Assembly: GCA_049682815.1 (NCBI GenBank)
Contig: JBAUII010000068.1
Coordinates: 4,738 to 68,737 of the forward strand
Direction of reading: 5' to 3'
DNA: 64,000 nt
Source of the DNA: Thermodesulfobacteriota bacterium
GTDB lineage: Bacteria > Desulfobacterota_D > UBA1144 > Nemesobacterales > CSP1-2
The first letter of the stretch is position 1. The number at the start of each line of letters is the position of its first letter. Both the position numbers and the translations under genes were made by a program. Under the pieces are notes generated by a model. The model did not search any database, was not told the DNA's origin, and saw only the letters and a program-made list of their open reading frames with translations. Positions 53,117 through 63,895 of the stretch are shown piece by piece.

Positions 53117-53359
53117 ATGAAGATCGTAAAAGCAACCGAAGCAAGAAACAATTTATACAGGTTGATTGACGAGGCTAGTGAATCCCATGAGCCGATTCAA
53201 ATATCCGGTAAGCGTTCGAATGCCGTTCTTATATCTGAAGAGGATTGGCGATCCATTCAAGAAACACTTAACTTGGTCTCTATACCAGGGATGAGGGAAT
53301 CAATAATTGAAGGACTTCAGACGCCGGTAGAGGAGTGCTCTGAGGAACCAGAGTGGTGA
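53117..53359 (+). CDS. Phd/YefM-family type II antitoxin
   Basis: The N-terminal (I/V)xAT(E/D)ARxNLxxL(I/L) motif, the approximately 80 aa size and an acidic C-terminus. Confidence 0.75.
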   Translation: MKIVKATEARNNLYRLIDEASESHEPIQISGKRSNAVLISEEDWRSIQETLNLVSIPGMRESIIEGLQTPVEECSEEPEW

Positions 53360-53605
53360 TTAGTCCCTTTAATTATCCAGGAATTAAAATACATTATTTT
53401 TCTCTATAAATTTAATAGCTGCTATTCATAAGGAATTGGAATACTTAAACCAAAAGAAAGAAGAGGACAGTACAGAGGAAATTGATCATAAAAGGAGAAA
53501 GATAATTCAACAAATAGGGGGCGAGAAGAACCAGGCCAAAAAATAACTCATTTATTCATGCCCGCCCCTGTCCTTCCTTCAATCAAGAGTTGCTCCCGAG
53601 GACCT

Positions 53606-53703
53606 TTGTCGGGAATCCGCCACCATTCTGTCATCCCCGAATGCTTTAATCGGGGATCCATAAAGACGTCATTGCGAGTGGCAACGCCACGAAGCAATCT
53701 CAT
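53606..53703. repeat. Family-B hairpin repeat (minus orientation, 53606-53650) immediately followed by a family-A repeat (53668-53703), at the edge of the AT-rich island
   Basis: Same sequence families as in 14148-15675 (TGTCATCCCCGAATGCTTTAATCGGGGATCCAT; GTCATTGCGAGTGGCAACGCCACGAAGCAATCTCA). Confidence 0.7.
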
Positions 53704-54298
53704 ATTCGCCCCCCCTACCCTCCATTCTCTTTCATCATTTGAATCTTGTCATGAGTCCTTTAAAATCCCGTCCCTTCACCCTGTCTGAGCCCTGAGCCTG
53801 TCGAACTATCGAATGGGGTCGAAGGATCGAACGCTGATCCGGGTTCTCCCCATACTCCGACAAGACCATATGAGGCCAAATGCGTGGAATGAGAAAAGGG
53901 CGTGACAAACAAATAAGCAAAGCCTGTGCACAACTTATTCAAATTACAACAATACAAGCCTGACCCGTAGCTCTAAGTAATTATGCAATATCTTATTATC
54001 TAAGTCTCCTCTATCCATTGGTTTGTTTTTAATTTGGTTCATTATTCCTAAAGATTTCATTGAGCGGATTATCATCCTAAGCTCTTCAGGCCAAGCTACA
54101 AAGAAATAGCCAAGCTATGATAACAGGGTGGCACTTATATTATCCTCGATGGTGGTCTGGCGAATATTGCATATTAAACGGCTTTTGTGTATAATCTTTA
54201 CCATATAAAACGAGTATGCACTATTTGTTTAAGACAAACTATAACACAAGAGATTTATTTATTAATATTCAAAAATATCTCTACAAGGGGGTTAATAA

Positions 54299-54677
54299 GA
54301 TGAGAATAAAATTCATATCTCCTAAGGCTGGATATGGGAAAGTAAAATGTACTGTGCACAAAAACGGTAAGTTAGGTTTTTCCCAAGCTGCCATTAAAAG
54401 ATTGAATGTAACCGACTCTAAACATTTCAAAATTGGTGTCAACGAAGAAGATAAGTCTGATGATAGCTTGTACCTTATGGTAACAGAGAATGAAGATAGA
54501 GATACATACAATGTAAATAAAGCCGGCAACTACTATTATCTGAATACTAGAAATTTGTTTGATGAACTAAACCTGAATTATAGAAACAAGCGTATTATAT
54601 ACGATATTGAAGAGATTGAATACGAGGGAACACGATTGTATAAATTAAATAAGAGGGAGTTGGACAGGAGTAAATAG
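54299..54677 (+). CDS. Hypothetical small protein (126 aa), first gene of the AT-rich island
   Basis: A strong RBS (AAGGGGG) lies 8 nt upstream of the ATG at 54299. There are no recognisable motifs. Composition is Lys/Asn/Tyr-rich. Confidence 0.5.
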
Positions 54678-54751: not shown

Positions 54752-55897
54752 TTGCATAAATTAACATTTTATCCGCTTGGAAATGCAGATACCTGCAAGA
54801 TTGATCTTTCAGATGGACAAAAGCTTCTCTTTGACTATGCCCACTTGCGAGATAACGAGAATGAAGAAGATCTTCGAGCAGATCTGGAAAAATTGCTCCG
54901 AGAGGATTTAGAAGCAGCAGGACGTGATTATTTCGATGTTGTGGCATTTACGCATGCTGACACAGACCATATAAAACGTGCTTCTGAATTTTTTTTCTTA
55001 GAGCATGCTAGCAAATATCAGGGTGATGAACGTATTAAAATCAAGGAACTTTGGGTTCCTGCCGCTATGATAATCGAAGAAGGATTAAAAGATGATGCTA
55101 GAGTGTTGCGGAGTGAAGCTAGATATCGCCTAAAGAATGGTTTTGGCATAAGAGTTTTTTCTCGACCTGAAAGGCTAAAAGATTGGTTTGAAGAACAAGG
55201 TATAGCAGTAGAGGAGCGGAGTGGATTAATAACCAACGCTGGTCAAACGGTTCCAGGATTTAACAAAGATAGGGACGGAGTTGAGTTTTTTGTTCATTCG
55301 CCTTTTGCACTACGAGATGGTGAAGAATTAGAGGATCGTAATGAGAGTTCTTTAATACTCCATATAACACTCATTTGCAAGGGGAGGGAAACAAAATTTT
55401 TACTCATAGGAGACTCAACGCATGACGCTTTAGCTAATGTAGTGAATATTACAAAATATCACCATAGAGAAGAACGCTTGGAATGGGATATTTACGATAT
55501 ACCCCACCATTGTAGCTACTTAGCACTTAGCGATGAAAAAAGAGCGAAAAAAACTATACCTGCTCCAGAAGTTAAGTGGCTATTAGATCAAGGCAGTAAG
55601 AAGGGTGTTTTAGTATCTAGCAGCAATCCAATTCCAAATGATTATGAAAATCCTCAGCCCCCACATAAGCAGGCAGCAAGTTGTTACGAAGATATTGAGC
55701 AGGGTATAGATGGTAGATTTAAGGTAACGATGGAGCATCCGACTGTATCTAAACCAGAACCATTAGTTATTACCATTGACGAGTGGGGAGCTAAACCAAA
55801 GTTAATTATTTCGGGTGGTGGATCTGCAACTACAAGTCGTCCAGCACCAAGGGCTGGTATTTTGAATGACGCTAAATTATCTTCCAGTACTGGGTGA
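54752..55897 (+). CDS. Metallo-beta-lactamase-fold hydrolase, ComEC/Rec2-like variant (HxDxDH), with ~200-aa C-terminal extension ending in a disordered Gly/Ser/Thr-rich tail (...SGGGSATTSRPAPRAGILNDAKLSSSTG)
   Basis: N-terminal beta strand (KLTFYPLGNADTCKI), THADTDH metal motif, later GDSTHD and HHCSY. Paralogous in these motifs to 58267-59082. Its 3' end overlaps the next gene by 32 nt. Confidence 0.6.
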   Translation: MHKLTFYPLGNADTCKIDLSDGQKLLFDYAHLRDNENEEDLRADLEKLLREDLEAAGRDYFDVVAFTHADTDHIKRASEFFFLEHASKYQGDERIKIKELWVPAAMIIEEGLKDDARVLRSEARYRLKNGFGIRVFSRPERLKDWFEEQGIAVEERSGLITNAGQTVPGFNKDRDGVEFFVHSPFALRDGEELEDRNESSLILHITLICKGRETKFLLIGDSTHDALANVVNITKYHHREERLEWDIYDIPHHCSYLALSDEKRAKKTIPAPEVKWLLDQGSKKGVLVSSSNPIPNDYENPQPPHKQAASCYEDIEQGIDGRFKVTMEHPTVSKPEPLVITIDEWGAKPKLIISGGGSATTSRPAPRAGILNDAKLSSSTG

Positions 55898-58115
55898 TGT
55901 AATATCCAAAAGTGATCTTAGAATTTCTAAAGCCAAAGAGATTTCAGATGCTTTAGAAAAATTACCTTATTTCTCACTTATAGAACTAAGAAGAATAACA
56001 AATCCATATGAGGCGGAAGCGGTAATATTTGATACCGAGGTGGAAATTGGACAAAAAACTATCCATGATATTCGTAGTACGGAACGAATTGCAGTAATTT
56101 TTACTCCAGAAGATAAATTCGTTCCTGAGGTTCTTGGTCTCCGCCCAGATTTTCCTTTAGTCCCTCATTTGAACTTACGTCAACAAGAAAGGCCCCGAAG
56201 CCTTTGTCTATTCAGTGAGAAGTACAGTGAAGTGAAATTTCACTGGACACCAAAATACTTTTTGGAGCGCATCCGTGAATGGTTAGCTCTTAGCGCTAAG
56301 GGTGAACTTCATGGAGATGATCAACCTCTAGAACCATTATTAATAGGATCACCTATAAAACTAATATTTCCATTCGACCTATTTGATGGAAAAAATATTG
56401 ACGAACTTGAATTGATAATAATACGACGTGCCGATTATGGAAGTAACGGATCGACTCTAATTGCTAATCGACAGAAAGACACTCCGACGATTAATAAAGA
56501 AGAGATACGATTTATTGCATTTCCAATCCAGGGCAGGCCTCAAGCGCACGGAATAATTTATAATCAGCCCGCGAATTTGTCAGAGCTTCACGACTTTCTA
56601 GATAGAACAAAGATTGATTTATTGAATGAACTACGAGGCTTTTTGAGAAAGTTTCAAACAAGTCACCCTAATAGTAACTTAATTAGAGCTCACCTTATAT
56701 TGATTATTAATCTCCCTAAGACAAGACATAGTAGTGGTAAACCCGAATCATCAGATATGTGGGCTTTCTGGTTGGAAGACACAATAGAAGAACTAGGAAG
56801 GAAAATTGGAATCTGGGAGAAAAAGGCAGGAGGGTTAGGAATCTTAATACCTCCTGACTATTTTAAAAAGGGTGAAGATGTGAAAATACACATACTCGAT
56901 CCTACACCCTACTTATCACGAGAACTTGCTTCTAAGTTAAATGGATTAAACCGAATAGATGACAGACAATTTTGTCTTGTTGGAGTTGGAGCACTTGGTT
57001 CACAAGTATTGAATAATCTCGTTCGAATGGGTATTGGAAACTGGACAATCATTGATGAAGATTGTTTGCTTCCCCATAATCTTGCTCGTCATGCACTTAC
57101 AAGTATTCATTTGGGATATTCCAAAGCAGAAATGCTTGCGGCAGAAGCGAATGGAATGATAAAAGGTGAGCCAGTCGCAAGCTCCATTGTAACTGATGTT
57201 TTAAATCCCCTAGATTCATTTGAGAATCTAAATTCTGCTTTCAAAGAGGCTCGAGTTATTATAGATGCGTCTGCATCAATCCCAGTTGCTCGACATTTGG
57301 TTCGAGATATCAAATCCAGAGCTCGCCGCCTGTCTATATTTCTCAACCCATCAGGAAGTGATGTCGTTATTCTTGCAGAAGATGAAAAAAGAAAACTTCC
57401 CCTTGATTGTTTGGAAATGCAATATTATCGTTACGTGATAACTAAGCCTAAATTAAAAACTCATTTTCAAAGAAAGGTTGGCTCAGTTCGTTATGCTCGC
57501 TCATGCAGAGACATAAGTAGCACTATTCCACAAGACCTAGTTTCATTACATTCTTCCATATGTTGCCGAGGGATCCTCAGTTTGATTAAGCAGAAGAAGT
57601 CACGTATTTCGATATGGAAGGCTGACATTATTGATTTGACAGTGACGAAATACAACGTTCCAATTTATGAGATTATACAGAGGAAGCTTGGCCCCTGGAC
57701 CTTATGTTTCGATCAGTTTTTGTTAAATAAAATATCAGAATCACGGGAAGAAAAATTGCCAAACGAAACCGGAGGTGTTCTGATAGGATCTTACGACATG
57801 CAAAGAAAGATTGTTTACGTTGTGGATACTATTTTGTCACCTCCTGACAGTTTTGAATATCCGACCGCATATATAAGAGGGTGCAAAGGATTAAAAAAAC
57901 GTGTTGATGAAATTCAAGAAACAACTATAGGAATGTTGAATTATGTAGGAGAGTGGCATTCCCACCCATGTGGATTTAATACTAAACTTAGTGACGATGA
58001 TAAAAAATTGTTTAGCTGGCTGAAAGAAAATATGAATATAGAAGGATTACCTGCATTGATGCTGATTGCAGGAGATAAAGCAAAATACTCGTGGTACCTT
58101 GAGAACACTAGTTAA
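55866..58115 (+). CDS. E2-like / E1 (ThiF) / JAB (JAMM) triple-fusion protein of a ubiquitin-like conjugation-type defence module
   Basis: N-terminal region with the UBC-like motif FPLVPHLN...RSLCLF (HPN..C-like). Central ThiF/E1 Rossmann fold (LVGVGALGSQV...IIDEDCLLPHNLARH). C-terminal JAMM metalloprotease motif (E..GEWHSHP...LSDDD). Confidence 0.7.
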   Translation: MTLNYLPVLGDVISKSDLRISKAKEISDALEKLPYFSLIELRRITNPYEAEAVIFDTEVEIGQKTIHDIRSTERIAVIFTPEDKFVPEVLGLRPDFPLVPHLNLRQQERPRSLCLFSEKYSEVKFHWTPKYFLERIREWLALSAKGELHGDDQPLEPLLIGSPIKLIFPFDLFDGKNIDELELIIIRRADYGSNGSTLIANRQKDTPTINKEEIRFIAFPIQGRPQAHGIIYNQPANLSELHDFLDRTKIDLLNELRGFLRKFQTSHPNSNLIRAHLILIINLPKTRHSSGKPESSDMWAFWLEDTIEELGRKIGIWEKKAGGLGILIPPDYFKKGEDVKIHILDPTPYLSRELASKLNGLNRIDDRQFCLVGVGALGSQVLNNLVRMGIGNWTIIDEDCLLPHNLARHALTSIHLGYSKAEMLAAEANGMIKGEPVASSIVTDVLNPLDSFENLNSAFKEARVIIDASASIPVARHLVRDIKSRARRLSIFLNPSGSDVVILAEDEKRKLPLDCLEMQYYRYVITKPKLKTHFQRKVGSVRYARSCRDISSTIPQDLVSLHSSICCRGILSLIKQKKSRISIWKADIIDLTVTKYNVPIYEIIQRKLGPWTLCFDQFLLNKISESREEKLPNETGGVLIGSYDMQRKIVYVVDTILSPPDSFEYPTAYIRGCKGLKKRVDEIQETTIGMLNYVGEWHSHPCGFNTKLSDDDKKLFSWLKENMNIEGLPALMLIAGDKAKYSWYLENTS

Positions 58116-58266
58116 TTTATCACCTATCATGATAAAGGAAACTCTGAAATTTTGATTTATAGGTGAAACTTGAAAAAAGGATTTGAATTCTTTTTTGTAA
58201 GTTACCAGTAATACTGTGATTACAAAAAAATGAGCATATATGATAATGAACTAAGGAGAATTAGAA

Positions 58267-59082
58267 GTGGAAGTGCATTTTATAGATGTAGGTTGTGGAA
58301 ACATGGTATTAATTGTTCTCCCAGAAGGATCGGTGTTAATTTACGATTGTAATATAACAAATGATAATACAGGGAGGGTTCTTTTATACTTATATAGAAT
58401 CATAGATAATAAATCTATAGATGTCTTTATTAATTCGCATAGAGATGCTGATCATATGAGAGGAATAAAAAAGCTACATGCTGCCAACACAATCAAAGCG
58501 ATTTGGGATACGGGAGTACCTGGAACCACTACTTATTCACCAGAATACAGGGAATATATGGATCTTCGTAGATCGCTTCCTTCAAAAGAGATTGAACCAA
58601 GGAAATACTGGACATATGGAGATGCCAAGCTAAGATGTATGAATTCAAAATGGGAGGACTTCTCTGAGCCAAATGAACAAAGTGTGGTATTGAAAATTGA
58701 GTATAAAGGGTCGTCGGTTATGCTCAGCGGAGATACGAACTATAGACCATGGAAAGAGAAACTTCTTACTTTTTATAAAAACGGTGACCTCGGGTCCGAC
58801 ATTTTGCTTGCTGCTCATCATGGTTCATTATCGTTCTTTGATGATCCATCAAATTCCCAAAATTATTACACCAACCATATTAGAAAAATAAATCCAGCAA
58901 TGACTCTGATATCTGTTGGGCCAAATAATTATGACCTTCCAAATAAGAAAGCCGTTGAGCTCTATGAGAAATTTTCACGAGGTTCCGAGAAAGGAAATAA
59001 AGTTTTCACAACAGAAAATAAAGGTACTATGAAGTTGGTAATGAAAGAAGCGGGAGGCTGGACATTATATAGCAATCAATAA
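58267..59082 (+). CDS. Metallo-beta-lactamase-fold hydrolase, ComEC/Rec2-like variant (HxDxDH, HHGS)
   Basis: VHFIDVGCGNMVLI beta-strand start, SHRDADHMRG, SGDT, AAHHGS. These are the hallmarks of the ComEC-type lactamase_B subfamily. Confidence 0.7.
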   Translation: MEVHFIDVGCGNMVLIVLPEGSVLIYDCNITNDNTGRVLLYLYRIIDNKSIDVFINSHRDADHMRGIKKLHAANTIKAIWDTGVPGTTTYSPEYREYMDLRRSLPSKEIEPRKYWTYGDAKLRCMNSKWEDFSEPNEQSVVLKIEYKGSSVMLSGDTNYRPWKEKLLTFYKNGDLGSDILLAAHHGSLSFFDDPSNSQNYYTNHIRKINPAMTLISVGPNNYDLPNKKAVELYEKFSRGSEKGNKVFTTENKGTMKLVMKEAGGWTLYSNQ

Positions 59083-59084
59083 AA

Positions 59085-59783
59085 ATGGACAAATTAAGTT
59101 ACTATGATGTATTATCAAACCTTCTTCCTGGGCTAGTGTTTGTTTGGGCCTTGGGAGTGCTTGGACCATTCACAAAAGGTACAATCCAGCTTCTTTTAAC
59201 TGGTAATACTATCGTCGATTCGATAATTTTTGTCGCACTAGGTTATGTTGCTGGCCATATTTTACAGTTTATATCGAGATATTCTATAGAACAAATTTTG
59301 AAGAGAATATTTTGGAAAGGAAATTTCTTTTCAGATATTTTTCTAGTATCGGCATTTAAGCAATGTCCCCAAGTTGAATTACGCCGTTATATAGCCATTG
59401 CTGAAAATAAGCTTGGCTTCTCCCGTGATGATTTGGGAGTTTTGTGTGATCCAGATGTTACATCAAATCAATCCAAGAAAGAAAAAGCGATTTCACTCTC
59501 AAGAGCAATTTATCGTGCTATTGATGCAAAGACAAGCGGCTTATCACGTGCACATAAAGCACATATTCAGAATACATTCTATTCATTATTCAGAAATCTT
59601 TCGGTAGTTTTTCTGATACTAGGACTGTCTGATTTGTTAGCAATAATCTTACATTTTGTACCACTAAGTAAAAAGATGACGTTTCTCATAGTAGTTAACT
59701 TTGCAATCTCGGTAATTTTTTTTATTAGAGCAAAACAACGTGGCGAATTATATGTAAGAAGTTTATTTTGGAGCTATATTTGA
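59085..59783 (+). CDS. Hypothetical integral membrane protein (about 4-5 TM helices)
   Basis: Hydrophobic helices at the N- and C-termini. Starts 3 nt after the preceding stop. Confidence 0.45.
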   Translation: MDKLSYYDVLSNLLPGLVFVWALGVLGPFTKGTIQLLLTGNTIVDSIIFVALGYVAGHILQFISRYSIEQILKRIFWKGNFFSDIFLVSAFKQCPQVELRRYIAIAENKLGFSRDDLGVLCDPDVTSNQSKKEKAISLSRAIYRAIDAKTSGLSRAHKAHIQNTFYSLFRNLSVVFLILGLSDLLAIILHFVPLSKKMTFLIVVNFAISVIFFIRAKQRGELYVRSLFWSYI

Positions 59784-60215: not shown

Positions 60216-63173
60216 CTAAGTCTTTGCCAATTCTTGATAAACCATCTCAAACATCTTCGCCACCAGCGCTGCTCTTATTGCCTTGTTGTCATTAACCTTC
60301 TTATAGAAGTCGAAGTGCTCGTCAATTATCTCTTGGAGCTTCTCATCAAAGAGATGGTCGAATGTTAGCCTTATTTTTTCCTTGCTATTTACCTTTGCGC
60401 TTGCCTTCAGCGATGGATTGCTCTCAATTCTTGATTGCAGTTGTTGAGCAATTACTTTATCTGATTCTGTAAAGTCAGTGCCATACTTGTCGTTTATTGA
60501 TTCAATTATCTTAGATAGGGCCTCTTTCTCTTTGCTCTTTAATGTTATCGCATCATATCTAGCTGGCCTAATCGAACCTCCGCGATCTCGGATTTCAATA
60601 CCCGTGCCCAGGTGCCCTATTCTGTAAGAATCCATATCAACCTGTTCCATGACCTCCACGGGCAGCCTATCATCGATTCGTGGCAACTTCCTTATCAGCA
60701 TCTTGCTGAAAACATATAGCTTTTCCAGATTAATATCTTTGAAGGGTATTATCTGAGATAAAAAGGCGTATAGGCGAATATAATTCCTTAGAAGTTTCTT
60801 GAACTCCTCCTGCTTCTCGGTTGGTAACTCCTCAAATCGTGAGACAACTTCATTAAGTATGGGATGCAGTTTATCTTGCTTCACTTTCTTATCGAAGAAG
60901 AGTTTTGCAAATCCATCCACATCTTCATGACTGAATACATACTGGTCCAGGAGCTTATGCTGAAAGTCATACAACTTGTTTGGATCAGTGCCTTCAGAAA
61001 GTATTGTTTCTCCATAATAATCCTCAAAGGCTTTTTCTATTTCATCCGCTTCATTAGCAAAATCCAGAATTAAGGGGTCTTCTTTATTGGAATAAATTCT
61101 GTTGACTCTGCTCAACGTTTGTACTGCTGCTACGTTTGCCAATTTCTTGTCCACATACATTGCATAAAGCAGGGGCTGGTCAAATCCTGTCTGGAATTTA
61201 TTTGCAACTATCAGAAATTTATTTCCCGCTCTTTTGAATTCATCCGCAGTCTGCTTTTCTGAGAAGCCATTCATGCCTGCTTCCGTAAAATCAAGGCCGC
61301 TGTCTGGATCATGAACTGTTCCTGAGAAGGCAACCAGGGTCTTGAACTTGTACCCCTTCTTCTTGATATATTTATCGCACGCAAGCTTAAACCTTACCGC
61401 GTGAAGCCTTGACCTCGTGACAATCATTGCCTTAGCTTGCCCGTTACCATTTTTGTCTGGAATCTTGTTTTTAACATGGTCATTGAAGTGCTCTATCATG
61501 ATTTCCACTTTCTTGTTGATTGAGTGCTCATGCAGGTCGACAAATGACCTTAGAAGAGCGGTTGCTTTTCTCTTGTCATAATTGGGGTCATCCTCAATTT
61601 TTTTAAGCAAATTGAAGTAGGTTTTGTAAGTTGTGTAGTTTTTTAACACGTCCCGAATAAAGGCTTCTTCAATTGCCTGCCTCATCGTGTAGAGGTGGAA
61701 TGGAAGGTATGAGCCGTCTTCTTGTTTTTCTCCAAATAATTCAAAAGTCTTTCCTTTGGGTGTTGCCGTGAATGCGAAATAGCTTACATTTTTCAACCTG
61801 CCTCTTGCATCTATTTCTTTCGTAATTTCATCTTCCCAGGTTACTTCCTCTATGTCTTTTTCCTCGGCTTCTTCAAGGCCTGAGACAGATAAAACCATTT
61901 TCAGGCTTTTGCTCGTCTCTCCTGATTGTGAGGAGTGAGCCTCATCAACAACAATGGCAAATTTCTTGCCAGGAAGCTTCGTTATATCATCAACGATGTA
62001 GGGAAATTTTTGGATTGTGGTTACAATAATTTTCTTGCCGCTCTCCAATGCTTCCTTTAGCTTCTTAGAGCCCTTGTCAATTTTTTCGACAACTCCGCTC
62101 ACCTGCGCAAACTGGTGGACTGTCCTTTGAAGCTGCCTGTCTAGTACAAGCCTGTCAGTAACAACTATTATTGAGTCAAATATTACCTTGTCTTTCTTGT
62201 CATGTAAGCTCGTTAGGTTATGACAAAGCCACGCTATCGTATTGCTTTTGCCGCTTCCCGCGCTGTGCTGGATAAGGTAGCTTTTGCCTAGATTATCTTT
62301 CTTGGCCGCTTCTACTAATTGCCTTACGGCATCTAGTTGATGGTATCTTGGGAAGATTAATTTCTGCTCTCCTGTTGGCTTTCCCTTTTCGTCCAGCACA
62401 TCTTCTATATGAAGAAAGTCCTTTATTATCTCTGAGAGTATTTCCTTAGTGAGGATTTCCTTCCACAAATATTCTGTTTTAAATCCTGCTGTATCAGGAT
62501 TTCCAGCGCCTCCATCCCGTCCCTTATTGAATGGCAGGAACTTTGTCTTTCCATTCTCCAGCTTGGTTGTCATGTAAACAAGGTCTTCATCTACGGCAAA
62601 GTAGACAAGATTCCTCTTAAAGGCAAAGTAAGGCTCTCTTGAGTCCCTGTCATACTTGAACTGCTTTATCGCATGCTCGACACTCTGCCCCGAAAGCTGG
62701 TCTTTAAGCTCAATTGTTATAATTGGAAGGCCATTAATAAAGAGCACCATATCAACAGATTTGTTGTTTCTCTCGCTGAAATAAACCTGCCGCATGACGC
62801 GGAACATATTTGCCTGAAAGAGTTTTTGGTAAGCTACGTTGAGCGTGGAAGCCGGCAAAGGATAGAATAAGTCGAAGTAGCAGCCGTAATCCCTTACACC
62901 CTTCCTCAAAACATCCAAGGTGCCTCTTTTCCCAATCTCATCTGCTAACCTCTTAAGGAACTTCTCTTGAACCTGGGAGCCATGCTGTTTCTTTAGCTTT
63001 CCCCACTCATCAGGCTGGGTTGCATAGATAAAAGCCAAAACCAGCTCAGTGTCCAAAGAAAGCTTTTTGTCATAATCGGTATTGTTTCTTGAAATGTATG
63101 CGTTCTTCCTTACAAGCCAGTCCTCTGTCTGCTCCTCCATCCTCATTTCTGAAGTTTTTAATTTAACAGCCAT
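60216..63173 (-). CDS. hsdR: Type I restriction enzyme R subunit (HsdR)
   Basis: N-terminal nuclease/PD-(D/E)xK region. SF2 helicase motifs: Walker A (QHSAGSGKS), DEAH box (VVDEAH), motif VI. About 985 aa. Confidence 0.85.
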   Translation of the reverse strand: MAVKLKTSEMRMEEQTEDWLVRKNAYISRNNTDYDKKLSLDTELVLAFIYATQPDEWGKLKKQHGSQVQEKFLKRLADEIGKRGTLDVLRKGVRDYGCYFDLFYPLPASTLNVAYQKLFQANMFRVMRQVYFSERNNKSVDMVLFINGLPIITIELKDQLSGQSVEHAIKQFKYDRDSREPYFAFKRNLVYFAVDEDLVYMTTKLENGKTKFLPFNKGRDGGAGNPDTAGFKTEYLWKEILTKEILSEIIKDFLHIEDVLDEKGKPTGEQKLIFPRYHQLDAVRQLVEAAKKDNLGKSYLIQHSAGSGKSNTIAWLCHNLTSLHDKKDKVIFDSIIVVTDRLVLDRQLQRTVHQFAQVSGVVEKIDKGSKKLKEALESGKKIIVTTIQKFPYIVDDITKLPGKKFAIVVDEAHSSQSGETSKSLKMVLSVSGLEEAEEKDIEEVTWEDEITKEIDARGRLKNVSYFAFTATPKGKTFELFGEKQEDGSYLPFHLYTMRQAIEEAFIRDVLKNYTTYKTYFNLLKKIEDDPNYDKRKATALLRSFVDLHEHSINKKVEIMIEHFNDHVKNKIPDKNGNGQAKAMIVTRSRLHAVRFKLACDKYIKKKGYKFKTLVAFSGTVHDPDSGLDFTEAGMNGFSEKQTADEFKRAGNKFLIVANKFQTGFDQPLLYAMYVDKKLANVAAVQTLSRVNRIYSNKEDPLILDFANEADEIEKAFEDYYGETILSEGTDPNKLYDFQHKLLDQYVFSHEDVDGFAKLFFDKKVKQDKLHPILNEVVSRFEELPTEKQEEFKKLLRNYIRLYAFLSQIIPFKDINLEKLYVFSKMLIRKLPRIDDRLPVEVMEQVDMDSYRIGHLGTGIEIRDRGGSIRPARYDAITLKSKEKEALSKIIESINDKYGTDFTESDKVIAQQLQSRIESNPSLKASAKVNSKEKIRLTFDHLFDEKLQEIIDEHFDFYKKVNDNKAIRAALVAKMFEMVYQELAKT

Positions 63174-63895
63174 TACACAACGCCCCGTACATCAATCTTT
63201 CCAGTCACCGCATGCGAAATCAAGGACGTTTTGTATTCATTCAAGAGGTCTATTTGTTTGTTTATTTTTTCCATTAGGTTGTCGATTCTTGAAGTTTCAG
63301 TTTTTAAATACTCTAAAATCTTTTCCTGCTCATCAACAGGCGGTAAAGGTAACAATACATTTTTCATATTGTCTTGATAGATTACCTCAATTGTTGTAGC
63401 GCAACTCATTATCAAAAGTTGCTCCCAGATTAATTTTGCTTGCTCGATTATCAGTGTTAAATACTCCTTAAGAATCCTTTCCTTATTAACTTGAATCCTT
63501 AGTAAACACGGATGTAAAATACCTTTTTCAGCATTCTCAGCGACAATGAACGTTTGGCCTATAGAACCTCTGGTTGTTATTAGAATGTCGCCAGGTTCTA
63601 CCTCAAAAGCTTTAAGTTCCGAATATTTTTCGTAAGAAACGTAATTCTCACCATGAGTAATATCCTTAAGAAGTACAGTTTCTTGATTGTATACTTTAAC
63701 ATCACCCAATTCCATATCGCTGGCTTTTAACTGGCTACCGAATGGACCTGTTTTGATTGCACCCTTTTTATTATCAACGCAATATTTAAGTTTCTTAAAA
63801 TCCCAATGAAACGGAATTGTTTCAATTAGTTCACTTCCGGAATCCTTCATCTTTACATCAGGGTCTAAACCCTTCGTCACAACATGGCTTATCAA
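63173..63895 (-). CDS. hsdS: Type I restriction-modification specificity subunit (HsdS), one target-recognition domain plus conserved coiled-coil; the gene probably continues beyond the window end
   Basis: HsdS-like TRD and a conserved central/C-terminal helix (LPPVDEQEKI...). The sequence at 63940-64000 repeats the conserved-helix-coding motif seen at 63240-63300, which suggests a second half. Confidence 0.7.
   Translation of the reverse strand: MISHVVTKGLDPDVKMKDSGSELIETIPFHWDFKKLKYCVDNKKGAIKTGPFGSQLKASDMELGDVKVYNQETVLLKDITHGENYVSYEKYSELKAFEVEPGDILITTRGSIGQTFIVAENAEKGILHPCLLRIQVNKERILKEYLTLIIEQAKLIWEQLLIMSCATTIEVIYQDNMKNVLLPLPPVDEQEKILEYLKTETSRIDNLMEKINKQIDLLNEYKTSLISHAVTGKIDVRGVV

Follow-up and report, generated by a model that had tools for sequence, protein, structure and literature searches.

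Genes at the locus

We analysed a 64,000-nucleotide stretch of contig JBAUII010000068.1 from a Thermodesulfobacteriota bacterium, referred to below in its full length as the window, and within it the gene for MBL2, a protein of the metallo-beta-lactamase (MBL) fold. Between 54.2 and 60.1 kb the list of open reading frames (ORFs) of the window holds six consecutive ORFs on the forward strand (Table 1). Two MBL proteins, MBL1 and MBL2, flank a conjugation enzyme, as an earlier reading of the same DNA (the sequence-only reading) had described; this enzyme is a triple fusion (E2-E1-JAB) in which Pfam recognises all three domains. Judged by curated protein models, MBL1 and E2-E1-JAB are the two genes of a known anti-phage system, 6A-MBL. 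What we add is a variant locus that carries a further module, made up of MBL2 and a small transmembrane (TM) protein, at the 3' side of this pair.

Table 1. Features of the MBL2 locus, in window coordinates
Feature	Position	Strand	Basis or remark
153-aa ORF	54216..54677	+	Upstream of the 6A-MBL pair; may be a regulator; true start perhaps M29
MBL1, MBL-fold enzyme of 6A-MBL, 381 aa	54752..55897	+	NCBIfam NF058524
E2-E1-JAB triple fusion, 'cap2_3', 749 aa	55866..58115	+	Pfam Prok-E2_A, ThiF, Prok-JAB; NCBIfam NF058523
Spacer, 151 bp, 26% GC	58116..58266	+	Weak promoter-like site 58219-58247; Shine-Dalgarno AAGGAGA 58254-58260
MBL2, ComEC-type MBL hydrolase, 271 aa, GTG start	58267..59082	+	Pfam, PADLOC, AlphaFold, Foldseek
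Four-helix membrane protein (TM), 232 aa, Csx27-like/PDC-M48A-like	59085..59783	+	PADLOC
GIY-YIG protein, 83 aa	59874..60125	+	Pfam GIY-YIG E = 2.4e-5

Predicted fold and motifs of MBL2

The GTG start codon of MBL2 lies 6 nt downstream of its Shine-Dalgarno sequence, and 35 homologues conserve the first 12 residues of the protein (MEVHFIDVGCGN), H4, V8 and G11 without exception. This ribosome-binding site and the conserved N-terminus make the GTG start credible. Throughout the family the residues of the motifs S57-H58-R59-D60-A61-D62-H63, G155-D156 and H184-H185-G186-S187 are either invariant or show more than 90% conservation. Among the same 35 homologues the candidate metal ligands D27, H58, D62, H63, D156, H184 and H185 are invariant, and D60 is conserved in at least 90%. 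The metal-ligand signature of ComEC is thus present, with HxDxDH as motif II, the bridging aspartate of motif IV (D156) and the histidine of motif V (H184/H185). Two asparagines, N126 and N136, are at least 90% conserved and are possible candidates for the motif III Asn that replaces His.

The AlphaFold model of MBL2 has a predicted local distance difference test (pLDDT) score of 94.8. In a Foldseek search its top neighbour in the PDB is the MBL domain of ComEC (9ic4, E = 1.1e-18, template-modelling score (TM-score) 0.80), and a profile search of PDB sequences matches ComEC domains over the full length (2.8e-11 and 1.5e-10). MBL2 also matches Pfam Lactamase_B above the gathering cut-off (E = 2.5e-9), and in PADLOC it matches RTasMBL (2e-14) and PDC-M48B (8e-12 and 3e-10). 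The protein has no signal peptide and no TM segment. From this model and these matches, MBL2 is predicted with high confidence to have the MBL fold and to belong to its ComEC-like branch, so the sequence-only reading was right to call it a ComEC-type protein.

The C-terminal domain of ComEC is a Mn2+-dependent phosphodiesterase and DNA nuclease in which the motif II His is replaced by Asp, and mutation of the two motif II aspartates abolishes its activity (PMC8579336). By analogy, MBL2 is most likely a Mn2+-dependent nuclease or phosphodiesterase.

MBL2 ends in ...GGWTLYSNQ. We considered and rejected a hidden conjugatable C-terminus on the protein, as its homologues mostly end in ...NQ and it carries no C-terminal glycine.

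MBL2 and a membrane protein form a two-gene module

The gene for the four-helix TM protein starts 2 nt after the MBL2 stop codon, and the two genes are translationally coupled. To describe the surroundings of the family, we scanned one genome per GTDB species for MBL2 relatives, which gave 70 loci (numbered with the prefix L), and clustered all ORFs within 10 kb of MBL2 without prior assumptions. Two families of membrane partners emerged, TM_A (about 240 aa, 3-4 helices) in 44 loci and TM_B (about 165 aa) in 13, and together they cover 56 of the 70. Of the loci in which both flanks of MBL2 extend for at least 5 kb (42 loci, hereafter those with full flanks), 32 have a TM gene no more than 1 kb from MBL2. 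Moreover, the distance matrices of MBL2 and the adjacent TM protein are correlated (Mantel r = 0.80, p = 5e-4, n = 36). The true partner of MBL2 is therefore the adjoining four-helix protein, and the two form a co-evolving two-gene module. MBL2-TM pairs stand alone in most genomes.

In PADLOC the TM protein of the window matches Csx27 (4.8e-12), tm_4 (4.8e-10) and, over its N-terminal part only, PDC-M48A (1.8e-5 and 1.2e-4). Adjacency, correlated distances and the PADLOC matches make MBL2 and the TM protein a module of the PDC-M48 kind, where PDC stands for the PADLOC phage defence candidates, which were predicted because they lie embedded in known systems (Payne et al. 2024 bioRxiv 10.1101/2024.01.29.577857). 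We found no mention of PDC-M48 in the literature searched.

The PDC-M48 candidates share with the window the two-gene layout of a small multi-TM protein (A) and a ComEC-like MBL (B). MBL2 matches five PDC-M48B models, one partially (8e-12), one nearly end to end (3e-10, residues 2-253 against 6-270 of 291) and three more weakly, the PADLOC models having been used without a curated cut-off; true members of PDC-M48B match at 1e-36 to 1e-139. On the other side of the pair the likeness is looser, because the TM protein of the window fits Csx27 and tm_4 better than PDC-M48A. Since the five models capture the MBL2 family poorly, it amounts to a sixth subfamily for which there is no model. The MBL2-TM pair is best classed as a PDC-M48-like module, of divergent type, that adjoins a canonical 6A-MBL operon.

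A further, different MBL of the PDC-M48B type adjoins many of the stand-alone MBL2-TM pairs (L002, L003, L006, L019, L024, L025, L027-L029, L039-L042 and others). Among the 42 loci with full flanks, such a different PDC-M48B-type MBL is present in 11, and 18 have a second MBL, whatever its type, within 4 kb. An architecture of two unlike MBL proteins with one membrane protein may be general.

The upstream pair is a 6A-MBL system

MBL1 scores 405.7 bits against NF058524 ('6A-MBL_enzyme', anti-phage 6A-MBL system MBL-fold protein; cut-off 220), and E2-E1-JAB scores 659.5 bits against NF058523 (6A-MBL system cap2_3 protein; cut-off 320). By these model matches the two genes (54752-58115) are the named and already described 6A-MBL anti-phage system. 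MBL1 is identical to NCBI protein WBD99_08115. The operon type, 6a, was described by Iyer, Burroughs and Aravind in 2006, and the name 6A-MBL is credited to van den Berg et al. 2024 in the accessible parts of PMC13276650 and bioRxiv 10.1101/2025.09.30.679545. [quoted passage not shown] It is curated as a two-gene system. The sequence-only reading had held that the arrangement is not a feature of CBASS or Bil operons; this is true, but it overlooks that MBL1 and E2-E1-JAB are themselves the known 6A-MBL system.

The motifs of MBL1 are T67-H68-A-D70-T-D72-H73, G220-D221 and H252-H253-C254-S255. Near its C-terminus, G369 in the sequence ...PAPRAG is invariant; about half of the homologues end exactly at this glycine and the others carry tails of 1-12 residues. 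Here the tail comprises the 12 residues after G369, ILNDAKLSSSTG, and is disordered in the AlphaFold model (residues 369-381 at 55855-55897), which has a pLDDT of 86.0 overall and disorder from residue 352 to 381. The coding sequence of the tail shares 32 nt with the annotated start of the E2-E1-JAB ORF. In divergent 6A-MBL lineages the MBL1-type proteins end in ...HG. A glycine followed by variable tails is as expected of a C-terminus that JAB trims and E1 activates, and it suggests that JAB trims the MBL1 tail before E1 activates the glycine.

In some divergent 6A-MBL lineages E2-E1-JAB is much longer (about 1,140-1,160 aa; L017:6054-9464 and L028:8060-11548), which points to at least one extra domain.

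MBL1 and MBL2 are anciently diverged families

The sequence-only reading had called MBL2 a shorter paralogue of MBL1 with the same HxDxDH, GD and HHGS motifs. The first two are indeed common to both proteins, but MBL1 has HHCS in place of HHGS. Likewise, MBL2 does lack the C-terminal extension and tail, but this is not the sole difference; in addition to the disordered tail with PAPRAG, MBL1 has an internal helical insertion of about 80 aa and a beta-hairpin that are absent from MBL2.

Direct comparison of the two proteins gives a barely significant BLASTP match (E = 0.023, 24% identity over 135 aa). Profiles built from 35 and 36 homologues align colinearly in hhalign over 245 columns through all motifs, with weak statistics (E = 1.1e-3, probability 20%, 21% identity). 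The best NCBIfam match of MBL2 is NF058524, the model of MBL1 itself (E = 1.7e-15), although at 57 bits it lies far below the cut-off of 220. For both AlphaFold models the two highest-ranking PDB neighbours are the same, ComEC 9ic4 and then the phosphorylcholine esterase Pce (1wra). MBL2 is much the closer to ComEC, as MBL1 aligns to 9ic4 with a TM-score of 0.48 by its own length and 0.66 by the length of the target (E = 3.2e-13).

MBL1 and MBL2 thus belong to the same ComEC/Pce-like branch of MBL proteins, so that their likeness goes beyond generic motifs, and they are distinct, anciently diverged families within it. The word paralogue overstates the relationship. Measured by the refuting condition that the sequence-only reading had set for itself, its interpretation holds by half. 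For the same reasons (the identity of 21-24%, the marginal E value, the low hhalign probability and the bit score below cut-off) we rejected a recent duplication of MBL1 as the origin of MBL2.

Association of the MBL2 module with 6A-MBL

In the MBL2-seeded sample, E2-E1-JAB lies within 10 kb of MBL2 in 15-17 of the 70 loci (11 of the 42 with full flanks), and MBL1-type genes are found in 13 of the 70. Apart from the membrane partners, the MBL proteins and E2-E1-JAB, no family occurs in more than five of these loci. The MBL2 genes with 6A-MBL nearby are scattered over the MBL2 tree and are paired with both window-type and divergent 6A-MBL lineages. The gene order of the window, MBL1-E2E1JAB-MBL2-TM, is also found in L022; L005, L009 and L063 have MBL1-E2E1JAB-TM-MBL2, and the arrangement is convergent in L032, L066 and L013. 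The composite loci usually have short gaps between genes of the same strand, and many have a single TM gene for two MBL proteins, with gaps of 0-95 bp.

A second sample was seeded with MBL1 and comprises 80 metagenome loci, 45 of which have the complete 6A-MBL pair and at least 900 bp downstream. No true MBL2 orthologue was found in the 80 loci. Nevertheless, 21 of the 45 carry a TM gene within 3 kb, nearly always on the same strand and directly after E2-E1-JAB, while 10 have a second MBL other than MBL1 and seven have both. The TM family found after E2-E1-JAB is homologous to the partner family of MBL2 (hhalign probability 100%, E = 3.4e-60), and the two share the motif N-x-x-Y-G-F-x-R-N. In these loci the distances of the TM protein are correlated with those of MBL1 (r = 0.85) and of E2-E1-JAB (r = 0.79), much as those of MBL1 and E2-E1-JAB are with each other (r = 0.82). 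The conserved TM protein after E2-E1-JAB looks like a third, so far unrecognised component of 6A-MBL. The second MBL proteins beside 6A-MBL are PDC-M48B members of several subtypes (E 1e-17 to 1e-139).

Examples of the TM protein of 6A-MBL, with 3-4 TM helices and about 250 aa, are encoded at L093:4778-5533, L124:3860-4639 and L138:13422-14174 (among L071-L150).

Different gene families thus reproduce the same combination of 6A-MBL and a TM protein, to which a second ComEC-like MBL may be added, a pattern unlike that of random neighbours in an island. The pairing of MBL proteins around the conjugation enzyme noted by the sequence-only reading is likewise recurrent (13-17 of the 70 MBL2-seeded and 10 of the 45 MBL1-seeded loci). 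The link between the MBL2-TM module and 6A-MBL is specific but modular, and it is too frequent for chance. On this basis we favour, with moderate confidence, a reading in which MBL2 would be a ComEC-type hydrolase of an MBL-TM module that is docked on a 6A-MBL operon, the two forming parallel arms of one defence locus.

A number of observations weigh against this reading. 6A-MBL is missing from the surroundings of about three-quarters of the MBL2 loci, and about 78% of the 6A-MBL loci lack a second MBL. The distances of MBL2 are uncorrelated with those of MBL1 (r = 0.15, p = 0.19), and their correlation with those of E2-E1-JAB is not significant (r = 0.33, p = 0.07), whereas MBL1 and E2-E1-JAB are strongly correlated in the same MBL2-seeded comparison (r = 0.78, p = 2e-4). 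Among close MBL2-TM relatives, 6A-MBL is present in L024 and absent from L025, L029 and L065, and L024 and L064 have two TM genes, one per module. The MBL2-TM module could also be a separate transcription unit, because the AT-rich spacer before it has its own promoter-like site. PDC-M48-type pairs are predicted candidates only. The Mantel correlations partly reflect shared organismal ancestry, both samples are modest (70 and 45-80 loci) and dominated by metagenome-assembled genomes, and in related loci the longest ORF was taken by a mechanical rule. We found no paper that links 6A-MBL with the TM family or a second MBL; the primary 6A-MBL paper lay outside this comparison and may cover them. 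As to method, TM helices were counted with a simple hydropathy window, and the sensitivity of the hidden Markov models is uneven across MBL subfamilies.

Several of these points fit an alternative in which MBL2-TM would be a self-sufficient candidate of the PDC-M48 type that lies beside 6A-MBL through island accumulation only. We regard this as possible but doubtful. Each module occurs without the other in most loci, MBL2 and MBL1 show no co-phylogeny, and the presence of 6A-MBL varies among close relatives of MBL2. The orientation is convergent or divergent in four loci (L032, L066, L013 and L024), and the stretch from 54 to 64 kb appears to be a low-GC defence island with genes resembling type I restriction-modification (R-M) genes next door. 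The spacer with its promoter-like site and the ribosome-binding site of MBL2 itself would likewise suit an independent gene pair. Within the spacer there is no terminator-like hairpin between E2-E1-JAB and MBL2, and read-through transcription and an internal promoter are both possible. However, accumulation alone does not account for the specificity of the association, with E2-E1-JAB in up to 17 of the 70 loci against at most five for any unrelated family. The link also turns up with four or more PDC-M48B subfamilies and beside 6A-MBL lineages that are divergent, many composite loci have closely spaced genes on one strand and a single TM gene for two MBL proteins, and roughly one in two 6A-MBL operons has this TM family as a third, co-evolving gene.

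Another alternative is a tighter bond between the two MBL proteins, which the sequence-only reading had raised as a possible heteromer. MBL1 and MBL2 would then form an obligate heterodimer like CPSF73/CPSF100, or MBL2 would be the lysine-bearing target of the MBL1 glycine. MBL-fold nucleases are commonly dimeric, and the combination of two different MBL proteins with one TM protein recurs, with a second MBL close by in 18 of the 42 loci as given above. MBL2 has two lysines, K165 and K245, that are invariant in the 35 homologues, and the conjugation targets of 6A-MBL are described as unknown, as noted above. However, the lack of correlation between MBL2 and MBL1 contrasts with values of about 0.8 for true partners (0.78 for MBL1 and E2-E1-JAB, 0.80 for MBL2 and its TM protein), and most members of each family occur without the other. 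In L028 and L032 sister MBL2 proteins that are 78% identical adjoin 6A-MBL enzymes that are only 33% identical. Both modules reassort, and this argues against an obligate, co-adapted heteromer; modular cooperation, like the swapping of effectors among CBASS operons, is still compatible with it. In addition, both MBL proteins keep full catalytic motifs, so that neither looks like an inactive scaffold subunit. We therefore consider this alternative, in either form, very unlikely.

Distribution of MBL2 and genes around the locus

We found 676 homologues of MBL2, and the closest 120, those listed, are 257-292 aa long and 56-72% identical to it. The 70 loci span Chloroflexota, Proteobacteria, Planctomycetota, Verrucomicrobiota, Acidobacteriota, bacteria of the Candidate Phyla Radiation and archaea, a patchy spread that is typical of mobile defence genes. 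No relative of MBL2 was found on the viral contigs of IMG/VR, and on plasmids we found only ComEC-like matches with less than 30% identity to MBL2.

Some of these plasmid-borne relatives, at 27% identity, are annotated 'ComEC/Rec2 family competence protein', and the nearest curated and structural relatives of MBL2 are likewise ComEC/Rec2 proteins. Both facts would suit a housekeeping role in which MBL2 is a stand-alone ComEC-like domain for DNA uptake or general metabolic hydrolysis. However, MBL2 scores only 50 bits against TIGR00361 (ComEC_Rec2; cut-off 190), only the MBL part of the model aligns (442-653), and MBL2 has neither the competence membrane domain nor the OB domain nor, as noted, a signal peptide. 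Its distribution across bacterial and archaeal phyla is patchy, and its gene sits within an island of low GC that has 6A-MBL on one side and type I R-M-like genes on the other. The conserved neighbours of the family are the TM protein, 6A-MBL genes and other defence-type MBL proteins. A housekeeping role is thus extremely improbable and close to refuted.

The GC content is 0.40 for MBL1, 0.38 for E2-E1-JAB, 0.36 for MBL2 and 0.34 for the TM gene, against 0.43 for the backbone. A separate acquisition of the two modules was considered from these values, which are not decisive.

The 153-aa ORF at the 5' end of the locus has no match in Pfam or PADLOC and only a sub-threshold match in NCBIfam, and tblastn finds no homologue of it in 150 related loci; its part in the system is doubtful. 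At other 6A-MBL loci the small genes upstream are of different kinds (clusters of about 145 and 221 aa), frequently in divergent orientation, and may have a regulatory role. At the 3' end, homologues of the GIY-YIG protein adjoin MBL2-TM pairs in L053 (42% identity) and L025 (32%) only. This protein could be a selfish nuclease or an accessory gene, and its membership in the system is uncertain.

Beyond it, on the reverse strand at 60216-63895, reading of the translations indicates the R subunit (985 aa) and, towards the end of the window, the S subunit (240 aa) of a type I R-M-like system. As these genes abut the locus, the MBL genes would sit in a defence island. On the other side lies a gene for a Phd/YefM-type antitoxin (53117-53359, E = 9e-19) with no recognisable toxin ORF downstream. 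The following 850 bp or so (53360-54215) contain no convincing ORF and no tRNA. Rfam has no match in this gap (53.4-54.2 kb) or in the spacer before MBL2. No tRNA that could mark an island border was found between 45 and 64 kb.

Comparison with known systems

The 6A-MBL system as curated has two genes, to which the locus of the window adds an MBL and a TM protein. The MBL2 gene lies directly downstream of cap2_3 on the same strand, and its product and the 6A-MBL enzyme fall together in the ComEC-like branch. However, MBL2 is not itself a 6A-MBL enzyme; it falls below the cut-off for that enzyme, lacks its helical insertion, C-terminal extension and PRAG glycine, and mostly occurs without E2-E1-JAB.

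With the MBL domain of ComEC, MBL2 shares the fold and the HxDxDH motif, and both work alongside a membrane component. However, the two are only 21% identical, and MBL2 is a protein of its own in the cytoplasm, unlike the ComEC domain, which is extracytoplasmic and part of a fusion with a channel. The TM partner of MBL2 is unrelated to the competence domain, and the context of MBL2 is defence, not competence.

The TM protein of the window aligns end to end with Csx27, the accessory membrane protein of type VI-B CRISPR systems, in both PADLOC and NCBIfam (7e-7 in the latter). Its score of 29.5 bits is however well below the NCBIfam cut-off of 65, no Cas13b is found at the locus, and only five of 25 members of the TM family match the model.

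Type II CBASS and Pycsar may offer a parallel in logic, in that a pair of an enzyme and a membrane protein stands beside a version with a Cap2/Cap3-like module that acts on the C-terminus of the enzyme. Here, however, a hydrolase fold takes the place of the cyclase, and E2, E1 and JAB are fused in one polypeptide. No nucleotidyltransferase of the CD-NTase (cGAS/DncV-like) type was detected among seven proteins of the locus with Pfam and PADLOC, or among six with NCBIfam, and MBL2 is not part of a CBASS.

Pycsar and many CBASS operons are laid out as an enzyme beside a small multi-TM protein. It is therefore conceivable that the MBL proteins make or process a signal and that the TM protein is a membrane-disrupting effector, as in those systems. 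The distant relationship of the TM protein to Csx27 would suit such a role. So would work from the Corbett laboratory, which groups 'MBL pathways' with type II CBASS and Pycsar as conjugating 'their respective signaling enzymes'. However, the fold and the ligand set of MBL2 are those of the ComEC nuclease domain, which is a hydrolase, and Pfam, PADLOC and NCBIfam show no nucleotide cyclase or ligand-sensing domain in the four proteins. To our knowledge no product has been reported for any defence-associated MBL. Related MBL proteins in Avs1, Lamassu/Hachiman-like and DRT (defence-associated reverse transcriptase) systems are annotated as effector-type partners. A signalling pair is thus an improbable explanation of the locus.

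A model for the MBL2 locus

In the reading that we favour, MBL2 would be a cytoplasmic ComEC-type metallo-hydrolase with two metal sites, and its module would sit at the 3' end of the 6A-MBL operon. E2-E1-JAB would uncover the C-terminal glycine of MBL1, activate it and attach MBL1 to a target, as Cap2 and Cap3 do with cGAS-like enzymes in type II CBASS. The basic working unit would be an MBL enzyme with a membrane protein, of which 6A-MBL would be the version whose enzyme, MBL1, is controlled by conjugation. MBL2, which lacks a C-terminal glycine and usually has no E1 nearby, would for these reasons be the conjugation-independent version. The suggestion in the sequence-only reading that the tailed protein is the regulated form and the other the constitutive one fits these observations, since MBL2-type genes lack E1, E2 and JAB in about three-quarters of their loci. 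MBL1 and MBL2 may share the single TM protein, and MBL2 would act with, or at, this protein, which may be an anchor, a pore or a target. Cross-talk between the module and the conjugation machinery is conceivable.

A broader version of this model is speculative, and we hold it to be unlikely as it stands. It takes an MBL with a four-helix TM protein to be the core of a widespread immune family, with PDC-M48 as 'type I' and 6A-MBL as 'type II'. MBL1 and MBL2 would then converge on one TM protein and form a split, ComEC-like nuclease device at the membrane that is directed against entering phage DNA or sets off membrane-linked abortive infection. The TM protein or MBL2 might also be the target of MBL1 conjugation.

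Implications

6A-MBL is a bacterial ubiquitin-like immune pathway whose conjugation target and killing mechanism are described as unknown in the reports that cite it. Our comparative data suggest that about half of the 6A-MBL operons have a co-evolving membrane protein and about one fifth a second ComEC-like MBL. Genes like MBL2 should be labelled neither as competence (ComEC) proteins nor as duplicates of the 6A-MBL enzyme. If the proposed model is correct, a type I and type II relationship like that of CBASS would be suggested for these systems, and the locus would hold a natural comparison of an MBL enzyme with and without conjugation. The membrane protein and the second MBL would then stand as specific candidates for the role of effector or target in the 6A-MBL pathway.

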